A stretch of 64,000 bases of DNA from an uncultured bacterium (GTDB taxonomy: Bacteria; Krumholzibacteriota; Krumholzibacteriia; Krumholzibacteriales; Krumholzibacteriaceae). Location of the stretch: positions 9,312 through 73,311 of the forward strand of contig CBDUYR010000005.1 of the NCBI GenBank assembly GCA_965371515.1, in the 5' to 3' direction. The first letter of the stretch is position 1. Every line of letters starts with the position of its first letter. Made by a program: the position numbers and the translations under genes. The notes beneath the pieces are model-generated. The model saw only the letters and a list, made by a program, of their open reading frames with translations, searched no databases and was not told the DNA's origin. Shown in pieces: positions 4,791-49,808 of the stretch.

Positions 4791-4975
4791 GACGATATCG
4801 TTCCTCCATAGAAGGATGAGATGGATAGCCCCCTCCACGAACCGATATTTAACAACCCACTTTCGACAATTAAAATTATGACATATACCAACAGGAAAGT
4901 CAAGATTGTACATTAATCAGGACATTAACTTTATGTTCGTAAGGATTTTTAACTTCATCGCGGAGGGTCTGAGGA

Positions 4976-6394
4976 TCAATCCCGTTTCTTCCCTTTGTTT
5001 TTCCCTTTGCTCTTCTCTTTGCTCTTCTCTTTGCTCTTCTCTTCGCTTTTCTTGTTATTCTCTCTTTTATCGTTTTTCTCGTTTTTTCTCTCGCGGAGGC
5101 GCCTCCAGTACTCGAGCCGTTTGATCATCTCCCTCTCGAATCCGCGCTCGACCGGCTCGTAATACCTCCTGCCGGCGATTTCCGCGGGGAAATACTCCTG
5201 GGCGGCGACGGCGTCGGACTCCTCGTGCGGGTAGATATATCCATCCCCGTACCCGAGATCCTTCATAAACCTTGTCGGAGCGTTCCTGATCCAGAGAGGG
5301 ACAGGCAGGGGACCGTGCTCTTCCACATCGGCAGCGGCCGCTTTGTATGCCGTCTCGAGGGCATTGCTTTTCGGCGCCAGCGCTAGGTATGTCACGGCCT
5401 GGGCCAGGGCGAGCTTTCCCTCGGGCATCCCGATGAACCTGACCGCTTCCATCGCCCCGATCGTCAACTGCAATGCCTGCGGATCGGCGTTACCGACGTC
5501 CTCCGAGGCGAACCGGACCAGGCGGCGGGCGATATAAAGCGGATCCTCTCCCGCCTCGAGCATCCGGGCAAGCCAGTAGAGGCCCGCGTCGGGGTCTCCC
5601 CCCCGCAGGCCTTTATGGAGGGCCGAGATGATGTTGAAATGTTCCTCGCCCTTCTTGTCGTAGCGGATGCTCCTTCTCTGGACCGCTTCCTCGACAGCTT
5701 CGCGCGTCAGTGTCACCGGACCCGCGCCGGGAAAGGAAGCGACGGCCATTTCGAGCGCGTTGAGCGCAATCCTCGCATCGCCGCTGGCCAGGTGTGCGAG
5801 GTAACCGAGGACCTCGCTGTCGGCATCGACGGCCCTTTTCCTGAAGCCTCGTTCGTCGTCATCGAGGGCGGCGCGGAGGATCCCCGCGATGTCTGCCTCG
5901 CTGAGCGACTCGAGGACGAACACCCTGCATCGTGACAGCAGCGGCGAGATCACCTCGAAGCTGGGATTCTCCGTCGTGGCTCCGATCAGGATTATCGTAC
6001 CATTCTCTATGTGGGGGAGAAAGGCGTCCTGCTGGGCCTTGTTGAACCTGTGTATCTCGTCGATGAAGAGGATCGTCCGGCGGCCGTTGTAGCCGAGCCG
6101 CTGGGCCGCCTCGCCTACAATCCTTCTGACATCGGCTATTCCGGCCGTCACGGCGGAGAAGAACACGAAATGCACGTCGACCTTCTCCGCTATGATATGG
6201 GCGAGCGTCGTCTTGCCGCACCCGGGCGGGCCCCAGAAGATCAGCGACGACTCGAGCGTCCCCTGTTCGAGCATACGCCTGAGGATCTTCCCCTCACCGA
6301 CCACGTCGCTCTGGCCGAAGAACTCGTCGAGGGTCTTCGGTCTCATGCGCTCCGCGAGCGGAGGCGCAATATCTGTGGAAAACAAGTCGTCCAT
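4976..6394 (-). CDS. rarA: Replication-associated recombination protein A (AAA+ ATPase RarA/MgsA) with lysine-rich repetitive C-terminal tail
   Basis: GPPGCGKTT Walker A, ILFIDEIHRFNK Walker B / sensor, RarA-specific helical lid and C-terminal domains; tail ...KSEEKSKEKSKEKSKGKNKGKKRD. Confidence 0.85.
   Translation of the reverse strand: MDDLFSTDIAPPLAERMRPKTLDEFFGQSDVVGEGKILRRMLEQGTLESSLIFWGPPGCGKTTLAHIIAEKVDVHFVFFSAVTAGIADVRRIVGEAAQRLGYNGRRTILFIDEIHRFNKAQQDAFLPHIENGTIILIGATTENPSFEVISPLLSRCRVFVLESLSEADIAGILRAALDDDERGFRKRAVDADSEVLGYLAHLASGDARIALNALEMAVASFPGAGPVTLTREAVEEAVQRRSIRYDKKGEEHFNIISALHKGLRGGDPDAGLYWLARMLEAGEDPLYIARRLVRFASEDVGNADPQALQLTIGAMEAVRFIGMPEGKLALAQAVTYLALAPKSNALETAYKAAAADVEEHGPLPVPLWIRNAPTRFMKDLGYGDGYIYPHEESDAVAAQEYFPAEIAGRRYYEPVERGFEREMIKRLEYWRRLRERKNEKNDKRENNKKSEEKSKEKSKEKSKGKNKGKKRD
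4990..5045. repeat. 12-nt tandem repeat (tttgctcttctc, about 4 copies) encoding (EKSK)n at the rarA 3' end
   Basis: Direct reading: ctttgctcttctctttgctcttctctttgctcttctcttcgc. Confidence 0.7.
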
Positions 6395-26509: not shown

Positions 26510-27529
26510 TTAAACCCGGATCAGGATCTGCTTCCCGGCCTGCGGAAGCGCCTCTCCTATTACGGCGGCATACCCGGCGCCGGAATTCCTGATACTGTCT
26601 ACGAGACCCTGCGCCTTCTCTGCGGGCAGGGATATCAGCAGGCCGCCTGAGGTCTGCGGGTCGTGCAGGAGCATCATCTGTTCTCTCGTCAGGCTGCCCT
26701 CGACCTCCAGTGCAATGCTCGTGAACTGCACATTAGACATTCCGCCGCCGGTGAGAAGGCCCTGCGAGGCGAAATCGGCCGCATCGGGAAGAAGGGGAAC
26801 GGCCTCCATATCGATCGCGATCGTCACGTCTGACCCCGTGGCCATCTCGAGGGCGTGGCCGGCCAGCCCGAATCCGGTTACGTCCGTGCAGGCGTGAGCA
26901 CCCGCTGCGACCATCGCCCTGGCCGCCGGTGCATTGAGCGCGGTCATCTGATCGATAAAGAGTCTCTCCTGCTCCTCGTCGAGGACCCCCTTCTTCATCG
27001 CCGTCGAGTAGATGCCCGTACCGAGCGGTTTCGTCAGGATGATCGCGTCGCCAGGCCTGGCGCCCGCTGTGAGCACGACGTTGTCGGGATGGATCGTCCC
27101 CATGATCGAAAGGCCGTACTTCAACTCGGAATCCGTCATCGTATGGCCGCCGACGATGACAGCGCCCGCCTCGTTGACCTTGTCGGCGCCGCCCCGCATC
27201 AGGAGCTCGAGCGCCTCGATCTCGAGCTTTCCCTCGGGAAAGCCGATGATGTTGAGCGCCGATACCGGCTCCCCACCCATCGCGTAGACATCGCTCATCG
27301 CGTTCGCGGCGGCGACCTGCCCGAACATGTAAGGATCGTCCACTATTGCGGGGAAGAAATCGACTGTGAGGATGATCGCCCTGTCGTCGCTCACGCGCAC
27401 TACACCGCAGTCATCCGCCTGGCTCGTTCCGACGATCACGTCCGGATGGTCCTGGGGAGGGAGTTTATGTAAAACTGGCCACAACTCCGTCGGGCTGAGC
27501 TTGGAAGCTCAGCCCGAACACGAAGCCAT
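26510..27529 (-). CDS. selD: Selenide, water dikinase (selenophosphate synthetase), selenocysteine-containing form with in-frame TGA at 27509..27511
   Basis: ORF-track protein (26510..27484) is SelD lacking its N-terminal catalytic loop. Extending upstream in frame gives ATG(27529)-MASCSG-[TGA]-ASKLSPTELWPVL, which aligns with E. coli HGAGCGCKISPKVLETIL (Sec at the catalytic Cys17 position). Confidence 0.75.
27459..27515 (-). promoter_or_regulatory. SECIS-like mRNA hairpins at the selD UGA
   Basis: mRNA gggcugagcuu-cc-aagcucagccc is a perfect 11-bp stem containing the UGA; a second hairpin ggaguu...aacucc lies about 20 nt downstream. Confidence 0.4.
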
Positions 27530-27589
27530 GGCCGTCAAACGGTACTTCTTTGACATATTCCACCCTTTTCAGGTGACAGGCCAGGAAGA

Positions 27590-27763
27590 TCATTCTACCG
27601 GCGCGATTGCCTCCGTGGGGCATACTTCGACGCAGGCGCCACAGTCGGTGCAGGTGTCAGCATCGATCTTGTACTTATCGTCGCCCTCGCTGATCGCCTC
27701 TACCGGACACTCCGGCACGCAGGCGCCGCAGCTGATGCACTCGTCACTGATAACGTGAGCCAT
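27590..27763 (-). CDS. 2x[4Fe-4S] ferredoxin
   Basis: CISCGACVPECP and CTDCGACVEVCP; ATG at 27763 with SD ggagga. Confidence 0.7.
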   Translation of the reverse strand: MAHVISDECISCGACVPECPVEAISEGDDKYKIDADTCTDCGACVEVCPTEAIAPVE

Positions 27764-40679: not shown

Positions 40680-43052
40680 TCAGCGGATAATAACAATCTT
40701 CTGAACCTGTTCCTTCGGGCCGGCCTTGACCTTCATGAAGTAGACGCCCGTCACGACCTGCTTGCCGCGGTCGTCAAGACCGTCCCAGGTAAGCGTGATG
40801 ATCTGCCCGCCGAAGACACCCAGCTCGTACAGATGCCTCACATGCCGGCCCGCCACGTCGTAGATGTTGACGAGGATCTCGGTCTTCGTTTCGGCCGTCG
40901 GAGCTCGAAGCATATCTCTCGAGTCTCCGGTTCCCGAAGGATCGAAATAACTTCTCGGCACGTCTATGCTGAAGGTACTCCCCCTGTCGTCGGTGGGATT
41001 GGGGATGATCGAAGAGACGAAGTTTCCCGCGAGCGGTACGATCGCCGTCTCGGCCATCTCTTTCGACTCGTAGTGCAGCGTCGTCGGTTCGCTGTTGATA
41101 ACGACGTTGATCTCCCCGACGACCTGGTAACTGTACTTGTGCCCGGGCATGACTGTGTCGTCAATGTAACGGTAGCGCCTGTATTCGTCGTTATAGCTGT
41201 ATGTGCTGTCGCCATGGACAGTTCCAACCAGTTCCCTCGACGACCTGTCGGTCAGGTCCAGCCGGTACACATCGAATCCTGCACCGAATATCTCACTGGC
41301 CGTCTTCCATCTGACCTCGATACTGCCGGGCTCCGCTATCGCCATTGCTTCGTAATATCGAATGCCGACGAAATAGACCATGACGCTTGTGGTGTCGCTC
41401 AATTCCACGAGGTTCTCGGCAGCGAAGCGGATCCGGTTCTCGCCCGGGTCAAGTCCTTCCTGAAGGATGATGCCCGCACTGAAGCTCGAAGCTCCTGTAA
41501 ATCTGCCTGGAGCCTCCTTGAAGAATCCGTCGTTTATCGCTATCTGGAAGCTCACGATCTCGGGCGCGTAATCGATTCGCCGGTATTCCTCTATTCTCGT
41601 GTTCTGGTTCGGCACTGGTGTCTGTTCGACGTCGACCCAGATGAGTATGTCCCCGTAGAATGTCGTGTCGGATTTGGGAGTGTATGCCTCGATAACGGGC
41701 ATCACTTCGTAGAGATCCGGAATCGAATTCGGAACACTCTCGCCCGTGAAAATATTGTATTCGTCGGCCAGCCCGACCTGACCCATCGTCCACGGACAGA
41801 TCGGCAGCGGCTCATTTAACAGCGCATCGTTCATGATGCAGGGCCACCCCGCGCCGCAGTACCTATGGTACGAATTAGCATTGATGTAGTTGAGGTATCC
41901 GGATCTGGCGATACACGAAATCTCGGCGCTGGCGGCTTCGTCGAGCGCCCAGAAGACATGGCTCATCTCGCGGATGAACACGTGCGCGAAATTGAGGCCG
42001 CCCCCTAACCCGCACGCGGGATAAGGAACAACCATGTACGGTCCCCCGAGAAAGATCGTATACCCGACGTATTCGCCGCCAAACCCCCGCCAGCATTCGT
42101 TCACGCTCGCATCGGCTACAAAGGCGGTGAATACCCAGTCGTAGAGGAGAAGGCCGTCATCGCCGAGATCTCTTGCTCTCATCGCATTATTGAAATAATG
42201 TGTCATTTCGGATGCCGGAGCGTCACTCGGGATCTCTATATCGTAGCTCTCCGCCAGGTAGGTGATCGCCTCCGAGATCCAGATCGGATCAGTGTTCCAG
42301 TCGCCCTCGATAGGCTCCCGCGATACCGGCACACGGCGATGCAGAGAGGGACAATTCACTTCGAACGCCAGCGGCACCCAACGGGCTTCGTTCTGGTACT
42401 GGGAAAGTCCGAGATAGACGTCGCGTACTGCATTGCCGATCTCGTCATCCGTCCAGTTCTCGCTCTGCACGCCGCCCGAGCTCTCTGGAAAGATGAGATT
42501 GATGAGGACATTGCCGATGAGAAACTCTGAGTTCTGATCCATCGCCCTGTCAGCTATCTGAGCGGGTGCTCCTTCTCTCGGGTCAACAGATTTCGATACG
42601 GTCCTCTCGACGATATCGTGCGGCTTCTCTAAAACGAGGTCGACAAACGATTCCTTCGTGATCGGCCTCGCCATACTGAGGATCTTCTCCTGATCGAGCA
42701 GTCCCCTCGCCACCTTGAGAGTGACAAGGTCGACCTCCATCGGATCGATCTCCGTCGGGTCGGTGACAAACCGGATGTCGAGTTCCCCGAAGTCGGCTTC
42801 GCCGGCGCCTGCGGGGAACCTTCCGAATATCATCGTCGGGGGCAGACCGAGCAGGCCCTTCGCTCCCGCCTTCTCGGCGATCTCCATCGCCCTCCTGAAC
42901 GAACCGTTGTCGCCGTTCCTTATGAGTACGACGGCCTGCCTGAGGCCGTATTCGGTCTCGAAGTTGTCCGCAGATGACCTTGCCGGGAATATGATTAAAA
43001 CGGTGAGAAAACAGATGACGGTTATTGCGATCCTCTTCACTTTCCACCTCAC
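40680..43052 (-). CDS. Large secreted protein with Por/T9SS C-terminal sorting domain (function unknown, possibly a hydrolase)
   Basis: Signal peptide MRWKVKRIAITVICFLTVLIIFPARSSA; C-terminus EILVNIYDVAGRHV...TLTWDGLDDRGKQVVTGVYFMKVKAG...KIVIIR matches the T9SS CTD pattern; Cys-rich central region. Confidence 0.55.
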   Translation of the reverse strand: MRWKVKRIAITVICFLTVLIIFPARSSADNFETEYGLRQAVVLIRNGDNGSFRRAMEIAEKAGAKGLLGLPPTMIFGRFPAGAGEADFGELDIRFVTDPTEIDPMEVDLVTLKVARGLLDQEKILSMARPITKESFVDLVLEKPHDIVERTVSKSVDPREGAPAQIADRAMDQNSEFLIGNVLINLIFPESSGGVQSENWTDDEIGNAVRDVYLGLSQYQNEARWVPLAFEVNCPSLHRRVPVSREPIEGDWNTDPIWISEAITYLAESYDIEIPSDAPASEMTHYFNNAMRARDLGDDGLLLYDWVFTAFVADASVNECWRGFGGEYVGYTIFLGGPYMVVPYPACGLGGGLNFAHVFIREMSHVFWALDEAASAEISCIARSGYLNYINANSYHRYCGAGWPCIMNDALLNEPLPICPWTMGQVGLADEYNIFTGESVPNSIPDLYEVMPVIEAYTPKSDTTFYGDILIWVDVEQTPVPNQNTRIEEYRRIDYAPEIVSFQIAINDGFFKEAPGRFTGASSFSAGIILQEGLDPGENRIRFAAENLVELSDTTSVMVYFVGIRYYEAMAIAEPGSIEVRWKTASEIFGAGFDVYRLDLTDRSSRELVGTVHGDSTYSYNDEYRRYRYIDDTVMPGHKYSYQVVGEINVVINSEPTTLHYESKEMAETAIVPLAGNFVSSIIPNPTDDRGSTFSIDVPRSYFDPSGTGDSRDMLRAPTAETKTEILVNIYDVAGRHVRHLYELGVFGGQIITLTWDGLDDRGKQVVTGVYFMKVKAGPKEQVQKIVIIR

Positions 43053-43163: not shown

Positions 43164-43928
43164 TCAGTTTTCCGCTTCTCTTCCGGGTGTAGAATAATCT
43201 ATGAGAACCGATTCGGTCACAGTCACCTTGGGCCTGGTCTCGCGCGGGTTCCTGCCTCCCGGATAACTCGTCTTAGATGTCCGTTCCACGCGGCTTCTTA
43301 CGAGGCCCCAGAAAGGCACCTCGGAGGAGATCCTCAGGATGCTCCTCTCCTCCTCAAACCGCTCCGCCGTGATCCCTCCCATCGCCACGTCGCGCCTGTC
43401 GCTCCTGAAATACTCGAAGACATCGCACCGGAAAGTCCCGGCCGGCACCTCCACGCTCTCCGCTTCGTGCTCCTGCCTCTGCAGCCCCTCGCTTCTCTTG
43501 AGGAAAAGCCTGCCGATTTCGAAATCCTCGAGTTCCTCTAAGGACGGCTCCCTGAAAGGCTCGGTGCCGTCCCTGACCAGGATATCGCCGATGCAGGCGT
43601 AGAACTCCTCGGGGGTCTTCATCTCTTCCGCTCCGGCGCACAGGGTGAGACGAACTGTAATCGTCTCCGCGGCGATCGGAGGCCAGGTGGTAGAGGTTAT
43701 CTCGAGGCCGGCCCCGCCGGAGCCCTTTCCCGTCACTTCGAGCGTGACGAGCGAGCTGTCCCTGATGCCGTGGGCTTCCGATATGATAAGATACGATACC
43801 GATGTCCCCGCAGTGAAATCGACCGAGTGAAGCGAGACTCCAGGTACGAGAAAGTCGACTTCCGCCGTGGCGGGAGACGATGCGACGATCAATGTTCCCA
43901 GCGCGAGACAGGCCGATATACGGTTCAT
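43164..43928 (-). CDS. Secreted hypothetical protein
   Basis: Internal start MNRISACLALGTLIVASSPATA (signal peptide); no family recognized. Confidence 0.4.
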   Translation of the reverse strand: MNRISACLALGTLIVASSPATAEVDFLVPGVSLHSVDFTAGTSVSYLIISEAHGIRDSSLVTLEVTGKGSGGAGLEITSTTWPPIAAETITVRLTLCAGAEEMKTPEEFYACIGDILVRDGTEPFREPSLEELEDFEIGRLFLKRSEGLQRQEHEAESVEVPAGTFRCDVFEYFRSDRRDVAMGGITAERFEEERSILRISSEVPFWGLVRSRVERTSKTSYPGGRNPRETRPKVTVTESVLIDYSTPGREAEN

Positions 43929-43944
43929 GGGATCATCCCCCTCT

Positions 43945-45334
43945 TTATCTGTGAGCCTCGGCAGCGCCGGTGCTGTCGGCCAGCGCCCTGTGCCCCACTC
44001 TCGCCCAGAAGGTCTGAAAATCGAAATGCGGGCTCTGCCTGGCGTTGTGGCATTCCCGGCAGACCTTCCTGGCTCTCTCCCTGTATTTACCGTTGCGCGT
44101 GTGTTTTGTTCCCGGTCCGTGACAGGCCTCGCACTGGACTCCCCTGAGGTTGATGCCGCCCTTCTCATCCGATTCCGGGTCGTATCCGCTGAACCTGCCG
44201 TATCCCGTCGTATGGCACGGAAGGCATCTGGCATTCCTGTCGTTCCCAGATTCTGTGAGCCTCCTGAAGGCGCGGAAGTGGGGACTGACCATGAAATCCG
44301 AGGCGGTGCCGTCGTGGCAGCGTGCGCAGATCTCCATCCCGATATACTTCTCTCTCAGTTTGCCCGTAAGGGGATTGCGAGAGACAAACTGCGTGACCTG
44401 CATCCTCTTCCGCCTCTGTCCCTGCTCGAGATGAAAATCACTGAGCATCGAGGCGACCATCGTATCTATCGGGGCCGACTTGGGAAGAGTTACCAGCATC
44501 GTGTCGGTCAGCTCCCACCTGCCTTGCACCGGTGTCATCACCGCCCACCCGAGAGCGCGTCCCTTGTCTCCCGAATAGAGGACGGGGACTCCAAGGTCAT
44601 GGAACGATCCACCGGTCGTGTCGGCGCAGTCGCTCGAAGCCTTCTCGCCCCGCTCGGTATGCCCGCGGATCACGAGATCTATCCCCTCTATTTCGAGGAG
44701 CAGCGGTTCGAGCATCTCGCGCCTGAAGTGGGCGAGGAGAATAATCATTTCACACCCATCCTCGCGTAACTCTGCGGCCACTTCCCTGCCCTCGGCAATC
44801 GGATCTCTCAGATCGATACCGGTCTCACCTGCCGGCTCTTCGCCGAGCAACGCAAAGATCCCTATCTTCGTGCCTCCCACTTTCTTGATGATGTAAGGTG
44901 GGAATATTCTCTCGTCCTCGTAGTAAAGATTTGCGCAGATCACGGGAAGGCCCGTCTGCGCCTCCTCCCTTATCGCCTTGAGCTCATACGACAGCTCGTT
45001 CTCACCGACGGCCACGGCGTCATACCCGGCCAGCACCATCATGTTCGCGAGGAACCGGCTCCTGTACATCTCCAGGATGCCCTTCCGGGCATAGAAATCG
45101 CCGGCGGAGAGGAGCAGCAGGCCGGGGGACTCCGCTCTCATCCGCTTGAACTCTGCGGCCCGCCGGGCCACACCGCCTGAGGCGGCCTCGCCTCACCCGG
45201 CCGGGACGAGGTGCCCCTGAGTGTCGCCGGTGAATACTATAGTCACCGATTCTTCAGTGGAGCATCCCGCCGCGAGGGCGAAGAAGAGAAGAGCCGGCAG
45301 AGCCAGCTTCAATATCAAGGATATCAGCATCATG
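43945..45334 (-). CDS. Lipoprotein: 5'-nucleotidase-like metallophosphoesterase domain (degenerate motifs) fused to C-terminal tetraheme cytochrome c; in-frame TGA at 45193..45195 (candidate selenocysteine)
   Basis: ATG 45334: MMLISLILKLALPALLFFALAAGCS-TEESVTIVFTGDTQGHLVPAG-[TGA]-GEAASGGVARRAAEFKRM..LLLLSAGDFY..GYDAVAVGENELS (compare UshA LHTNDHHGHF...LLLSGGD...AIGNHEFD). C-terminus has CARCH, CLPCH, CEACH, CRECH. Confidence 0.55.
45157..45192 (-). promoter_or_regulatory. GC-rich hairpins immediately 3' of the in-frame UGA (SECIS candidates)
   Basis: mRNA after UGA: ggcgag-gccgcc-uca-ggcggu and guggcccggcgggccgca (ggccc-ggc-gggcc). Confidence 0.3.
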
Positions 45335-45410
45335 TTTATGATTTTAACGTGTAGAGAAAAAGGGGCAAAGCGAAAATATTCTCCTTGCCCCTGTATAATG
45401 CAAACCCCTG

Positions 45411-45704
45411 TTACTTGGCTACACGGCCCTTGAGAGACTTGCCAGCCGAAAAGGCGGGGAACTTGGTCGCCGGAATCATGATGGTCTCGCCCGTCTGGGG
45501 ATTGCGGCCCTTGCGTTTCTTGCGCTTGCGGGTCTGGAAGGTGCCGAATCCAGTGATCTGTACTCTTCGCATAGCCGCGAGCTCTGTCGCGATTATGCCT
45601 TCCTTCGGAGCGGTGCTGAAGATCGCGTCGACAACCATGGCCGAATCCTTCTTCGTCATGCCCGTCTTCTTTGCGACCTTCTCGATGAGATCAGTCTTGT
45701 TCAT
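45411..45704 (-). CDS. HU/IHF-family DNA-binding protein
   Basis: [21 protein letters not shown]...GFGTF...RNPQTGE..IPA...F..GK.LK: canonical HU fold sequence; 97 aa. Confidence 0.85.
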
Positions 45705-45878
45705 TTCGTATCACCTCCTTCGTTTTCGTAATTGGACTGGCGCCAGATTAGCGCGGCCTTATGGGGTTGTCAAGACTTTTATGTCTGTTTTTCCCGTTCT
45801 CATCACTATTTTCAGGTGTGCGCCGCCTGTAGACCGCAACAGTACAGGGAAAATACATACCGGCCCAAACAAGATTCA

Positions 45879-48800
45879 TCAGTTGAGGAATCCCGGCACC
45901 GTCCCGCCAAGCCCCCGCTTTCCCTGCTCGTACTTGAGGTCGCGGTGGGCCTTGATCTGTATCTGGAAGTAGTATGAGTAATCGTCGCCGAACCTGCGGT
46001 GCACGAATCCCGCCTGCCAGCAGTGGAGGTCTCTTGTGATGCTGTACTGTTGCGACGTAAACTCGCGCCGCTGGATATCGAAATAAGAACTGAATGTTAT
46101 CTTCCAGTTATTCGTCAGGTTGAGGTTGCCCCTCATGTCGACCTTGCTCGTCGGGCGGGACATGCTCGAACCGCCAAAACCCGAATAGCTGTACCCGAGA
46201 TTCAATGACCAGCTCGTACCTCGTCCCGGAGCGCCGGGCCGCCTCGAGCTGCCGGGCTGTTCGGTCTCCCATTCTTCCTCATCGAAGTCGGAGACGAAAC
46301 CGTCGTACGTGTCGAGCTCGTCGACCTCCTCGTCCTCCGGCTCCTCCTCCCGTACAGAGCCGAGCTCTTTCGCCACTCTGATCTTCTCTCGCTCAGGCAA
46401 GTCCCACTTTCCCAGCCAGGAGAATCCGCCGCCGAAGCTCATGTTAGTCGAGAAATTCGTCGAGAGGATCTCCCATTCGTAAGGATCGATCGTGTGATTC
46501 AGCGATATCGAGGCAAGCCTGCCGACCGAGGTCCTGATACTCGACCGGATGTTCGAGAACTGCCTTTCGGACACGTCGGGGTTGAAGGAACCGTTCATGT
46601 TCCACGTGAAGGCGTTGTTCTTTTTCGACTCCTGGCCGTTCTTGAGGTATTTCAGGTCGATCACGTTCCTCAGCGACCAGCTGTACCCCTGCGACTCCCG
46701 CTGATTCGACGTCAGCGCCGGGACGTACGACCAGGAGATCGACGGGTTGAACGTGTGACGGATCCCGACGAGAGAGCCTATGTTCGGATAGAAGACGCCA
46801 TACAGCGTGGTTCCGACGCCGAGGGAGAAGCGCATCGACACCTCGTTCTTGTACTTTTCGTCCGGTGTCGGGCCCGACAAGTCCGTGCCGTATACAGGCA
46901 TCCCCGGCGTGATCCCGATAGCCGGATAGATTCCATTCACGATATCGATGAACTCCAGCGAGGATTCCGAACCCTCCAGGTTGGAGGTGAACCTGAAATT
47001 TCCCGTGTCGTCCCCGTTGTCGAGCCAGTCGACGGTCACATGGTCCGATCCCCAGCCGGACCAGGAGTTGATCGAACTCTCGATCTCGAAAGCGAGCAAG
47101 GTACCGGTATTGTATACGCCCTCGGTTATCGTGATGTCGCCGCTCTCCAGGCCGTTGAGGATGATCCTCAGGAGGCTGTTCGAGGGATCGACCGTTATCG
47201 GCACCGAAACGGTGTCACCCGTCATGACGGCCGGCCGGGGCGGCAGAATGTACTTGGGATTTATCTGGTCCTTCAGTGTGTTGGCGTATCTCCAGTTCAG
47301 TCCCACCGACGGCGCGATGTTGATGCCTATTACTTTATTCTGTTTGCTGAACGACATACCCGAACTCGCTGTTATATCTTCCCTTCTTCTCGCGTCACTC
47401 TGCGACGTAGTCCGTGTCGCTTTGAGATTGGGCGCCCAGGTGACTTCGCGGAGGACCCCCTCCCATACGCCCTTTTCCGAGCCCGAGTGCTTCTCGCCGA
47501 ACCACAGCGACATCCTCGGCAGATTGATTGACAGGGATGGAAAAGTGCCCGAGATGCTCACCTCGTTCGGGTTATCGGAGCTGACGTTGAGTTTCTGGTT
47601 CCTGCTCGCCGAGAGACCGAGCCGCGTGCCGCCCCAGTTCTTGTTGAAACTGACGGTCGAGTATATCCGTCTGTCCACCACGCGGGCGACATCATCGGCG
47701 CGGTAGACCGAAGAGGGCGCCTCGTCACTGCTTACAAAGCTGAGGTTGCTGCGAAGCGATGCGGTTTTGCCGAACGTCTGGTTGTGACTCGACTTGAACG
47801 TCCACTCGTACGATTTCCTGTTGAAGTCCCTGAAGAAGTCGAGGTTAACGTTTCCGCCGAGCACGTATCTGACCTTGTACCTGTTGGTCAGGTGTACGCG
47901 GAAGTTATTGTTCTCGTTAAAATCGGTCGTCAGTATGAAATCGGTATAGTCGTTCGTCGCCCAGTAGTACCCGATCCCCCTGATGAAACGGCCGTCTCGG
48001 CTGTTGAGGCCGATGTCGAAGTTAGGGCGGAGCAATCCCGATTGGCGGCCGCGGCGTATTGAGTTGACCATGTATGGAAGCCAGAAGCAGGGGATCTCGC
48101 CGAGGTAGAGAGTTATCGGGCCGGATACGATCTTGTCGTCGATATAAACCTTCATCCTGCCGGCACGCATCGAGTAGTGTGCTTTCCTGTAGTCGCATGT
48201 GGTGTAGGTCGACCCGTAGACCTTTAGCACGTCGTCGCCCTGCTTGAAGATCCTCTTGCCGAGATAATACCCCTGATCGTACTCGGTCGATCCGTCCATC
48301 ACAAGGCCCCCCTCGGTCTCCATATCGTACCCCATCCCGTATCCGTACATCATCTGCCCGTTCTCGTCGAGCGCCGGCTCGCCGTGAGCGTCGAGGATGT
48401 TGAGCCTCGAGCTGAAGTTTATGAATTCGGCGGTAAGGATCTTGTTCTGATAGTTCACTTTCGCGCCGTCGTACATGACGAAGTCCTCGGTCGTGGCAAA
48501 GTACTCGATCTCGTTCGCCTCATAAGTGATCTTCTCGGCGTCCCTGCCGAACTCCCTGAATACGATCGAACTGTCGACTATCGCGGCGAGCGAGTCGATC
48601 GACTCTCCCGCGCCGAGTGTGAGATAGTTGTACGTACCCGAGGCGTTGCCGGTAATCTTCACGTATCTCAGGTCCGGCCCGTCGAACCTGAAGAACATCG
48701 TGTCGCCCCTCGAGTAGTTGTTCGAGATCTTGTTTTCGGTCCCCTCGAAGGGATAGTACATCGCCATCGCATTGCCGAAGATCTGAACCGAGTCCACTTC

Positions 48801-49808
48801 ATCGTTCGACATGTGTATCACGATCGAGTCGCCCTCGATCCACGAGTCCTCGATCCACTGGGATTCGAGTCTGGGAGTTTCGGTCAGACGGCCCTTCTCG
48901 GGGAGCACGATCCTTTCCACGCCCTCATCGATGTAGTAGAGAAGCACCCTCTCCCCGGACATGCCTGACGGGCCGCTGCTCGCGATCGGGTTGCCGAAGA
49001 GCTCCATGTACCCCTTGTCGTTGAAAATCGCCGCCGAATCACATTGCGCCCTCGTGCGCCCCTTGAGCATGTTGACGTTTCCTACTGCCGTACCGACGTC
49101 CTTCTCCATGTCGTAGCTCATCCACTCGCTCGTCACCCGCCCCTCCTCCTCGGCATGATCGTCGAAGACGAGGACCGGGCGTTCGTACATGATCGCCTCG
49201 CCGGTGAGACGGTGAAACCGCCCGCGCGAACCAGAGATGGAAAAATCCTCCGCTGTGTCTATTATGACTACATCCCTCCACGCGTCTGCGATCTCGGTCG
49301 ACCTGTCGTAGAAAATCGAGTCTGCGTACATTACCCTTGTACTGTCTGAAAGGCGGACGTTGCCGGTCAGGACAAGCGTCCCTTCATCCCTGTCGTACTC
49401 GGCTCTCCGGCAGGTGACTTCGAGCCCCTCGTCGATCAGCCTCACGTTATCTATCATTACAAGGACGTTCTTCTCGCCGTAATACTCGCCGAGGTCACTG
49501 AACATCCGCATCGATCCGTCGATTCCACGGACGTCCCCCACGAGTATCGTGCGCTTGAGATCGGGATAGTGACGCCCCCGCTCGCTTGTCACGGTGGCGG
49601 TCTGGTGGTCGATTCGTACATCGCCCTCCATGTGCCAGACCTGGAGCCCGTCCTCGACCCTCGACTTGAACGTGTTGAACCTGATCCGGTAGAGAGACGT
49701 GTCGCCCGGCGATGCGGTGTTCTGCTGTGAACGGGCCGTGGGCGGCGCACCTCCGACCGCGAAGAGTATCGCGGCGATCGTCGACGTTATTGCGAGGACC
49801 CTTTTCAA
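45879..49808 (-). CDS. lptD: LptD/OstA-family LPS-assembly outer-membrane protein, unusually large (1309 aa)
   Basis: Signal MKRVLAITSTIAAILFAVGG; N-terminal OstA/LptA-like beta-jellyroll (LQVWHMEGDVRIDHQTATVTSERG); long C-terminal beta-barrel region with Y/F-rich strands. Confidence 0.55.
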   Translation of the reverse strand: MKRVLAITSTIAAILFAVGGAPPTARSQQNTASPGDTSLYRIRFNTFKSRVEDGLQVWHMEGDVRIDHQTATVTSERGRHYPDLKRTILVGDVRGIDGSMRMFSDLGEYYGEKNVLVMIDNVRLIDEGLEVTCRRAEYDRDEGTLVLTGNVRLSDSTRVMYADSIFYDRSTEIADAWRDVVIIDTAEDFSISGSRGRFHRLTGEAIMYERPVLVFDDHAEEEGRVTSEWMSYDMEKDVGTAVGNVNMLKGRTRAQCDSAAIFNDKGYMELFGNPIASSGPSGMSGERVLLYYIDEGVERIVLPEKGRLTETPRLESQWIEDSWIEGDSIVIHMSNDEVDSVQIFGNAMAMYYPFEGTENKISNNYSRGDTMFFRFDGPDLRYVKITGNASGTYNYLTLGAGESIDSLAAIVDSSIVFREFGRDAEKITYEANEIEYFATTEDFVMYDGAKVNYQNKILTAEFINFSSRLNILDAHGEPALDENGQMMYGYGMGYDMETEGGLVMDGSTEYDQGYYLGKRIFKQGDDVLKVYGSTYTTCDYRKAHYSMRAGRMKVYIDDKIVSGPITLYLGEIPCFWLPYMVNSIRRGRQSGLLRPNFDIGLNSRDGRFIRGIGYYWATNDYTDFILTTDFNENNNFRVHLTNRYKVRYVLGGNVNLDFFRDFNRKSYEWTFKSSHNQTFGKTASLRSNLSFVSSDEAPSSVYRADDVARVVDRRIYSTVSFNKNWGGTRLGLSASRNQKLNVSSDNPNEVSISGTFPSLSINLPRMSLWFGEKHSGSEKGVWEGVLREVTWAPNLKATRTTSQSDARRREDITASSGMSFSKQNKVIGINIAPSVGLNWRYANTLKDQINPKYILPPRPAVMTGDTVSVPITVDPSNSLLRIILNGLESGDITITEGVYNTGTLLAFEIESSINSWSGWGSDHVTVDWLDNGDDTGNFRFTSNLEGSESSLEFIDIVNGIYPAIGITPGMPVYGTDLSGPTPDEKYKNEVSMRFSLGVGTTLYGVFYPNIGSLVGIRHTFNPSISWSYVPALTSNQRESQGYSWSLRNVIDLKYLKNGQESKKNNAFTWNMNGSFNPDVSERQFSNIRSSIRTSVGRLASISLNHTIDPYEWEILSTNFSTNMSFGGGFSWLGKWDLPEREKIRVAKELGSVREEEPEDEEVDELDTYDGFVSDFDEEEWETEQPGSSRRPGAPGRGTSWSLNLGYSYSGFGGSSMSRPTSKVDMRGNLNLTNNWKITFSSYFDIQRREFTSQQYSITRDLHCWQAGFVHRRFGDDYSYYFQIQIKAHRDLKYEQGKRGLGGTVPGFLN

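Follow-up and report, generated by a model that had tools for sequence, protein, structure and literature searches.

Does a single in-frame TGA end a gene of an uncultured bacterium of the family Krumholzibacteriaceae, or is it read as an amino acid? The question is raised by the minus strand of a 64,000-nucleotide stretch of contig CBDUYR010000005.1 (assembly GCA_965371515.1), the whole of which we call the window. At 45195..45193 a TGA interrupts a reading frame that resembles a 5'-nucleotidase on both sides, and an initial annotation, made from the letters alone, had proposed a new selenoprotein. We conclude that this is very probably one gene for an UshA-like selenoprotein in which the UGA would be decoded as selenocysteine (Sec) 47 by means of a selenocysteine insertion sequence (SECIS) hairpin. 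The product would be an exported tetraheme lipoprotein, for which we infer a redox role.

Translation of the minus strand gave 462 codons from the ATG at 45333..45331 to the TAA at 43947..43945, and the TGA was the only internal stop. The initial annotation had thus chosen the correct frame and the correct TGA within the 5'-nucleotidase-like domain, while its coordinate for the ATG (45334) was one base off. The gene (43945..45333, minus strand) was delimited by translation and by its Pfam and NCBIfam matches and encodes 461 amino acids including Sec47, followed by the stop. The frame reads MMLISLILKLALPALLFFALAAGC with the lipobox LAAGC, then SVTIVFTGDTQGHLVPAG, the TGA and GEAASGGVARRAAEF...LLLLSAGDFY; the segment between the lipobox leader and the TGA is STEESVTIVFTGDTQGHLVPAG and the segment after the TGA is GEAASGGVARRAAEFKRMRAESPGLLLLSAGDFY. 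According to the translation and the alignment of homologs, the UGA (45193..45195) would be read as Sec at residue 47 in the motif P-A-G-U-G. The signal peptide with its lipobox LAAG-C24 (45262..45333, minus strand) is identified from the sequence, lies upstream of the TGA and is the sole export signal of the protein.

The list of open reading frames (ORFs) for the window holds only a 408-amino-acid piece (43945..45171) with a GTG start at 45171. Public annotations treat the gene in the same way. In the records examined for the Candidatus Krumholzibacteria-type clade to which the protein belongs, the calls are fragments of 398-417 amino acids without a signal. Among 5.8 billion proteins searched, 234 homologs were found, and our statements on gene calls rest on the best 120 of these. 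Their lengths range from 296 to 417 amino acids and they span 63-88% of the query, in most cases 78-88%. Their first residues lie at or shortly after '(M)GGVARRA', directly past the TGA column, so that we regard them as truncated calls. Among the homologs for which the source gives an organism, the majority come from Candidatus Krumholzibacteria.

Taken at face value, such calls favour a genuine stop, which would leave a 46-amino-acid peptide and a separate 408-amino-acid protein starting at GTG 45171, or else a pseudogene. TGA is also the usual stop codon in this genome, and in the public annotation of locus L130 a separate upstream call of 46 amino acids is present. We nevertheless consider a genuine stop extremely improbable. 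The attachment of c-type heme requires export. The 408-amino-acid product would carry four c-type heme sites and have no signal peptide, and it would lack the first β-strand and motif I of its own fold. Since the hemes need export and the only signal peptide sits upstream of the UGA, the arrangement argues for the reading-through of one protein. Furthermore, the start calls of the orthologs are inconsistent (M, V or none, with lengths of 361-417 amino acids), which fits artefactual calls. The GTG 'start' of the miscalled ORF is at the same time the first triplet of the SECIS stem described below.

The conservation of the upstream segment bears on the same question. DNA of clade loci came from an exact-protein look-up of close relatives and from scanning metagenomes with the non-cytochrome domain. 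Together with the window, the 44 loci obtained make 45 that cover the site; they comprise 37 distinct sequences, the most divergent at ∼45% protein identity. TGA is present in all 45 loci, with the same frame upstream. The motif [FL]-[TGS]-[GS]-D-x-x-G-x-x-x-[PSA]-[ADGV]-G precedes it in frame throughout, and nearly all clade loci have a hydrophobic leader that closes with a Cys of lipobox type. The initial annotation had named homologs that start downstream, with no motif I before them, as evidence which would speak against it; the clade DNA instead keeps both the leader and the motif I-like segment. Upstream of the TGA the amino acids are conserved while the third codon positions vary, and thus the segment before the TGA is under purifying selection as protein. 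This speaks against a genuine stop, nor would the same single stop in a pseudogene persist across a phylum. This organism's version of the gene occurs on 15 contigs from independent assemblies. Four of these were read (three identical, one a strain variant with 98% identity) and all four have the TGA, so that neither a sequencing error nor a private nonsense mutation can account for it.

A scan of genome contigs with the full-length alignment was dominated by the generic CEACHGPG heme motif and yielded only distant relatives. These full-length relatives have 22-35% identity, come from many phyla and share the segment ...E-P-C-G-[U/C]-x5-G-G-[LVI]-A-R-R-A. We tabulated 19 family sequences from outside the clade: 10 read C-G-U (TGA) and nine read C-G-C (Cys) at the same column. 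TGA was observed in L001, both paralogs of L002, L005, L008, L019, L024, L032 and L125/126. TGC or TGT was observed in nine distant homologs including L003, L004, L006, L007, L010, L015, L028 and L044 (Sorangium cellulosum). Selenocysteine sites are classically recognised by such an alternation of TGA and Cys codons at one column. It had been named as a check in the initial annotation, and both forms were found; moreover the homologs with Cys at this column are continuous proteins, which again speaks against a genuine stop. Within the clade, none of the 45 loci has Cys in place of Sec. A protein search with the N-terminal 136 amino acids returned six fragments, and neither a full-length form nor a Cys form was among them.

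A tandem arrangement was encountered in L002 (Candidatus Eisenbacteria metagenome-assembled genome (MAG), JAWKQE010000024.1), where two UshA-like genes both have an in-frame TGA (at 4877-4942 and 6052-6117). Their motifs are APCG-U and LECG-U, each with a downstream hairpin. The first paralog apparently has no tetraheme domain, with zero CxxCH motifs in the reconstructed ORF.

For the RNA downstream of the UGA we used a gap-free alignment (A3) of 46 Sec-containing sequences, spanning 66 nt from the UGA. It contains a single conserved hairpin, GUGGCCC-GGC-GGGCCRC, at columns 25-41, with 93.7% of the cells paired. In the window this hairpin (helix B, GUGGCCC-GGC-GGGCCGC, 45155..45171, minus strand) would form the core of a bacterial SECIS (bSECIS) element. 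It has a stem of 7-8 bp, a 3-nt loop GGC, a spacing of 28 nt after the UGA and a minimum free energy (MFE) of −14.2 kcal/mol. All of these values lie within the published bSECIS limits (stem 4-16 bp, UGA-to-loop distance 16-37 nt, MFE ≤ −7.5 kcal/mol). The SECIS-like structure for which the initial annotation had suggested a check is thus present, and it shows covariation: four of the seven pairs have changes on both sides, with compensatory examples in L005 (GGCAC/GUGUC), L008 (CUGGCGC/GCGUCAG), L024 (UUGCUC/GAGCAA) and L095 (G-C to A-U). Every measure for helix B was above all shifted registers. The measures also exceeded those of all 500 shuffles, except for the number of pairs with changes on both sides, which was reached by 26 of the 500. 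Helix B overlies the codons of V-A-R-R-A, the third positions of which have entropies of 0.21, 0, 0, 0 and 0.34 bits, compared to mostly 0.8-1.9 bits at other equally conserved four-fold codons of the gene. The frozen third positions under helix B point to selection on the RNA itself. Folding of the 69 nt past the UGA alone gave z = −1.2 relative to shuffles, which is insignificant.

Two GC-rich hairpins had been named in the initial annotation. One of them, ggccc-ggc-gggcc, is the conserved helix B; the other, gccgcc-uca-ggcggu, is not conserved in the clade. An optional lower hairpin (helix A, GAGGCG-AGGC-CGCCUC, 45179..45194, minus strand) incorporates the final two bases of the UGA. Only the closest relatives have it: it folds in the window sequence (WIN), L081, L084-L088 and L122, and 66% of its cells are paired across the family. 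Helix A and gccgcc-uca-ggcggu were both rejected as the core SECIS for want of conservation across the clade.

Even if the UGA is read through, a near-cognate or suppressor tRNA could in principle insert Trp, Cys or Gly instead of Sec, or UGA could be reassigned in this lineage. UGA is reassigned in some bacterial lineages (genetic codes 4 and 25), and within the window selD is the only Sec machinery visible. Decoding as something other than Sec is nonetheless very unlikely. TGA is the commonest stop in the window, ending 22 of the 37 long ORFs, and hence UGA is not reassigned and the code is standard. The column alternates solely between TGA and Cys codons. Downstream of the UGA lies a hairpin that agrees with the bSECIS model and has frozen synonymous sites, and curators class the family among the selenoproteins. 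The selD gene (selenide, water dikinase; 26510..27556, minus strand; TIGR00476, AIRS and AIRS_C domains) has a TGA of its own at 27511..27509 and reads MSKKYRLTAMASCSG-TGA-ASKLSP (CSG-U-ASK), with the TGA at the canonical Sec/Cys active-site position. Read through, it scores 371 bits against TIGR00476 (cut-off 125), which bears out the initial annotation of selD as a TGA selenoprotein. A Sec-containing SelD presupposes a working Sec machinery.

Other characteristics of selD were noted. Its ORF as called in the public style (26510..27484, 324 amino acids) is truncated like the call for the UshA-like gene. A perfect 6-bp hairpin, UGAGCU-UCCA-AGCUCA, has the UGA of selD as its opening triplet, and so the SECIS-like structure of selD begins at the UGA itself, whereas the hairpin of the UshA-like gene starts further downstream. 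An ORF ending in ...ACVEVCPTEAIAPVE*, with a ferredoxin-type 4Fe-4S motif (27560-27620, minus strand), stops a few codons before selD.

Having argued for Sec at residue 47, we studied the protein around it. Pfam reports a calcineurin-like phosphoesterase domain (Metallophos, PF00149) at residues 31-226 with 35 bits. The alignment to the 5'-nucleotidase of T. thermophilus (2z1a) spans residues 20-227 and thus crosses the TGA, with TLVHTNDTHAHLEPVELTLSGEKTPVGGVARRV of 2z1a aligned to TIVFTGDTQGHLVPAG---U-GEA-ASGGVARRA. The first β-strand and a degenerate metallophosphoesterase motif I, VTIVFTGDTQG (45214..45246, minus strand), align to TLVHTNDTHAH of the same structure. As the initial annotation had stated, motifs I and II lie in one frame across the TGA, and they align to solved 5'-nucleotidases on both sides. 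By this alignment Sec47 falls into the loop that connects motif I with helix α1, next to the ancestral di-metal site. Matches of the sequence to 5'-nucleotidases in the PDB had E values from 1e-14 to 1e-10. An AlphaFold model, which covers the post-TGA body only, shows a predicted local distance difference test (pLDDT) value of ∼90 for the N-domain. It superimposes on CD73, UshA, YfkN and SoxB over ∼280-300 columns, long linker helix included (Foldseek E ∼1e-14).

The catalytic residues give a different picture from the fold. D37, D79, H202 and H225 are kept, which are four of the seven or eight canonical metallophosphoesterase ligands, and D79 is itself variable (Gly in P0022 and P0111). Motif I retains its Asp, the His of D-x-H is replaced by Q39 and is variable in the clade, GNHE reads GENE here, and E227 stands where GHxH has its second His (GHTE); several of these positions vary within the clade. 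The 5'-nucleotidase C-terminal substrate-binding domain has no Pfam match in the window protein, where residues 336-440 are a Cytochrome_C554 domain instead. With D-x-H, GNHE and GHxH eroded and the C-domain gone, hydrolysis is not expected, and to judge from these residues a phosphoesterase activity of the protein is unlikely. The 5'-nucleotidase-like domain of the initial annotation therefore stands as a fold, while the loss of most catalytic residues and the tetraheme C-terminal third had been overlooked.

That C-terminal third is a tetraheme c-type (c554-like) domain (44047..44328, minus strand), identified by Pfam PF13435 (Cytochrome_C554) and a match to PDB entry 1bvb. PF13435 matched over its full profile at residues 336-406 (E = 8e-12). 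The four CxxCH sites are C336/C339/H340, C370/C373/H374, C401/C404/H405 and C425/C428/H429, and all 12 of their Cys and His residues are invariant in 19 homologs.

Taken together, these features suggest the following course of events. The hairpin at 45171..45155 would act as a bacterial SECIS and recruit SelB with Sec-tRNA(Sec), such that the UGA at 45195..45193 would be decoded as selenocysteine 47 instead of a stop. The product would be exported via its N-terminal signal, presumably lipidated at Cys24 and loaded with four c-type hemes in the periplasm. The selenol of Sec47, redox-active or serving as a ligand, could then trade electrons with the fused tetraheme c554-like module. Judging by the position of Sec47, the loss of hydrolase residues and the domain fusion, the protein would most likely be a membrane-anchored periplasmic oxidoreductase.

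Most noticeable in the clade is the residue two positions before Sec. It is mostly Ala, otherwise Asp, Gly or Val, and never Cys, while Cys is found there in all 19 family sequences from outside the clade. The clade sequences also share an insertion of 7-10 residues after motif V (GEKASSDCADTTG; 44611..44649, minus strand), which was identified in the clade alignment and carries an invariant Cys236 (TGC, 44628..44626). The insertion, with the motif S-[SD]-D-C-A-D-T, is present in every clade sequence without the Cys at −2 and missing from all 19 CGU/CGC sequences. Cys236 is invariant in alignments A1 and A5, and its loop has low confidence in the AlphaFold model. The inserted loop with Cys236 may have taken over the partner role of the lost C-x-U Cys. 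The loss of the one Cys and the gain of the other amount to a single evolutionary event, and the correlation is thus suggestive of Cys236 as a candidate relocated thiol partner of Sec47.

Alternatively, Sec47 might be a metal ligand and not the redox partner of a Cys. It would then sit in the vestigial di-metal pocket formed by D37, D79, H202 and H225, with the hemes feeding a centre in which the selenolate binds a different metal; [NiFeSe] hydrogenase and Mo/W formate dehydrogenase would be the precedents. This model would account for the four canonical ligands that are kept in the clade and for the Sec loop adjoining motif I. It would also agree with the absence of Cys for Sec at the 45 clade loci, and with the tolerance of A, D, G or V at −2, by which a vicinal C-x-U selenenylsulfide cannot be essential in the clade. 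We regard it as unlikely on the whole, though less so than the two alternatives discussed above. D79 and other ligands vary even inside the clade, the ligand positions are widely lost outside it while C-G-U/C stays, and the neighbourhood has no accessory genes for metal insertion. Furthermore, a relocated thiol partner accounts better for the −2 Cys having been lost where Cys236 was gained. A still more specific version of the thiol-partner model can be offered as a speculation of similarly low probability: Sec47 and Cys236 could form a selenenylsulfide switch at the vestigial di-metal pocket, wired to the four hemes, in an uncharacterised envelope selenoenzyme. With no Cys replacement anywhere in the clade, such chemistry would be strictly selenium-dependent. 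If true, the enzyme might, for instance, use electrons from its hemes to reduce sulfur, selenium or peroxide species, and might itself be handled by a LolA-like protein encoded next to it (see below).

Several observations count against an exported redox selenoprotein and have to be weighed. The window protein reads P-A-G-U and lacks the Cys of P-C-G-U, and the redox role as well as the partnership with Cys236 rest on position and co-occurrence. Against NF041198, the NCBIfam model UshA_like_PCGU, the protein scores 210.1 bits, which is under the cut-off of 275 bits. A search of the whole window with Rfam at gathering thresholds gave zero matches. The codons of Ala-Arg-Arg-Ala are self-complementary, the Cys homologs L003, L004, L010 and L015 can fold a similar hairpin, and 'GGVARRA' is also a protein motif of true 5'-nucleotidases. 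The conservation of the hairpin is hence partly confounded with coding constraint. Among the Sec homologs, L019 and L032 form no helix B at the same register. No tRNA, SelA or SelB is encoded within the 64-kb window, the large ORFs of which were checked for SelA and SelB.

As to the two Sec homologs just mentioned, L019 (6052-6117) is a Tara Red Sea 'Deltaproteobacteria' MAG and L032 (6046-6111) is a MAG labelled 'uncultured Enterobacterales'. They contain a shorter hairpin ∼19 nt past the UGA (GGCG-GUCU-CGCC / GGGC-GGUCU-GCCC). This hairpin may replace helix B, in which case the SECIS register would differ inside one family.

The initial annotation had known of no described selenoprotein in the 5'-nucleotidase/metallophosphoesterase family. 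This was mistaken: 'COG0737, UshA-like' with a CxU motif has been catalogued as a selenoprotein family since 2008, with 76 Global Ocean Sampling (GOS) sequences (Zhang & Gladyshev 2008, PMC2398784), and is listed again in the catalogues of 2022 and 2026 (PMC9312934, PMC13188914). No function of the family is reported in the texts examined. NCBIfam holds two models for the family, NF041198 and NF049981 (UshA-like (seleno)protein family 2). The window protein matches NF041198 better than any other NCBIfam model (E = 5e-62), and both halves of the profile are hit. The 519 profile positions are matched in two stretches, with residues 280-440 of the window protein corresponding to positions 358-519 and, for L082, residues 22-235 to positions 20-249. 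Relatives in the clade score 207-218 bits. Among eight relatives that were scored, the marine L019 alone exceeds the cut-off (363 bits). Because the clade scores under this cut-off, annotation pipelines never extend its genes. By its sequence the window gene belongs to the broad UshA-like selenoprotein family, yet it falls short of the curated equivalog in score and lacks the Cys of CxU. New are the lineage-specific variant and its mis-annotation in public calls; the family and the recoding mechanism were already known.

The practical value of this result lies in annotation. Every public call examined for the clade protein is a signal-less fragment, and the reason is the curated NCBIfam cut-off, which excludes the clade. 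With a lower cut-off or a model made for the clade, well over a hundred genes for selenoproteins would be recovered (at least 120 truncated clusters). The clade is also a natural experiment in which the Cys of CxU is dispensable and Sec is not, with Cys236 as a testable alternative partner. Furthermore, the SECIS element overlies the ancestral GGVARRA protein motif of the 5'-nucleotidase fold. The current understanding of selenoproteins is unchanged, and a catalogued family is refined.

The genes next to the selenoprotein gene were examined as well. A 254-amino-acid secreted protein with a LolA/LolB/RseB-like open β-barrel fold is encoded 16 nt past its stop (43164..43928, minus strand). The model of this protein has a pLDDT of 83; the protein contains a single invariant Cys (C168), occurs in the same lineages only and matches no Pfam or NCBIfam family. 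In L082 its reading frame overlaps that of the selenoprotein gene. Next follows a 790-amino-acid protein (40680..43052, minus strand) with a C-terminal type-A sorting domain of the type IX secretion system (T9SS; score of 24.1 on TIGR04183, cut-off 23). Synteny of its gene with the selenoprotein gene extends through the clade and to L001, and the protein is a T9SS cargo without hemes. Its ∼680 N-terminal residues have no family match, and its segment AHVFIREMSHVFWALDE resembles a degenerate zinc-protease motif.

On the upstream side (45411-49808) the order lptD - HU - UshA-like is kept in L001, L002 (Eisenbacteria) and L125/126 at protein identities of 28-29%. This synteny is unusually deep for genes without an obvious functional link. 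The order may have been inherited as part of an envelope-biogenesis region and need not be a functional operon, and the neighbourhood as a whole gives no clear hint at function. A sigma-70-like site, TTGCCC-16 nt-TAAAAT (45341-45368, minus strand), ends just 8 nt ahead of the start codon at 45333, and an mRNA made from it would be nearly leaderless. The site overlaps a hairpin with a T-run, GGGGCAA...TTGCCCC (45355-45392), that looks like the terminator of the HU gene (45411..45704).

We finally compared the window protein with known systems. With 5'-nucleotidase, UshA, CD73 and the thiosulfohydrolase SoxB it has in common the fold of the N-domain, the linker helix and the 'LEP...GGVARRA' segment past motif I. 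It differs from them in that the catalytic residues are mostly gone, a tetraheme domain takes the place of the C-domain and Sec is predicted in the motif I loop. The architecture of the NF041198 family is the same, with a 5'-nucleotidase-type N-domain and a C-terminal tetraheme c554-like domain. Sec occupies the homologous column, GG(V/L)ARRA follows five residues on and most Sec members have the hairpin over the same codons. The clade is set apart by the loss of the P-C-G-U Cys, the Cys-bearing insertion, the sub-cut-off score and the fact that no Cys form was seen. NF049981 matches with 42.2 bits (cut-off 140) over positions 1-93 of its 262. Both have a 5'-nucleotidase-type N-terminal region with Sec soon after motif I, whereas the motif is CxxU in NF049981 and xGU in the window protein. 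Cytochrome c554, the tetraheme protein of Nitrosomonas (PDB 1bvb), has four CxxCH sites alike but is a free-standing carrier, while here the domain is the C-terminal module of a lipoprotein and is fused to the Sec-bearing domain. Other multiheme selenoproteins are ExtKL (NF040886) and the Sec forms of the octaheme tetrathionate-reductase family TIGR04315 (PMC13188914). They are likewise redox proteins of the envelope that have both Sec and c-type hemes, but are unrelated in sequence and architecture and show a weak, generic likeness in the heme motifs (TIGR04315, 19.8 bits against a cut-off of 375).

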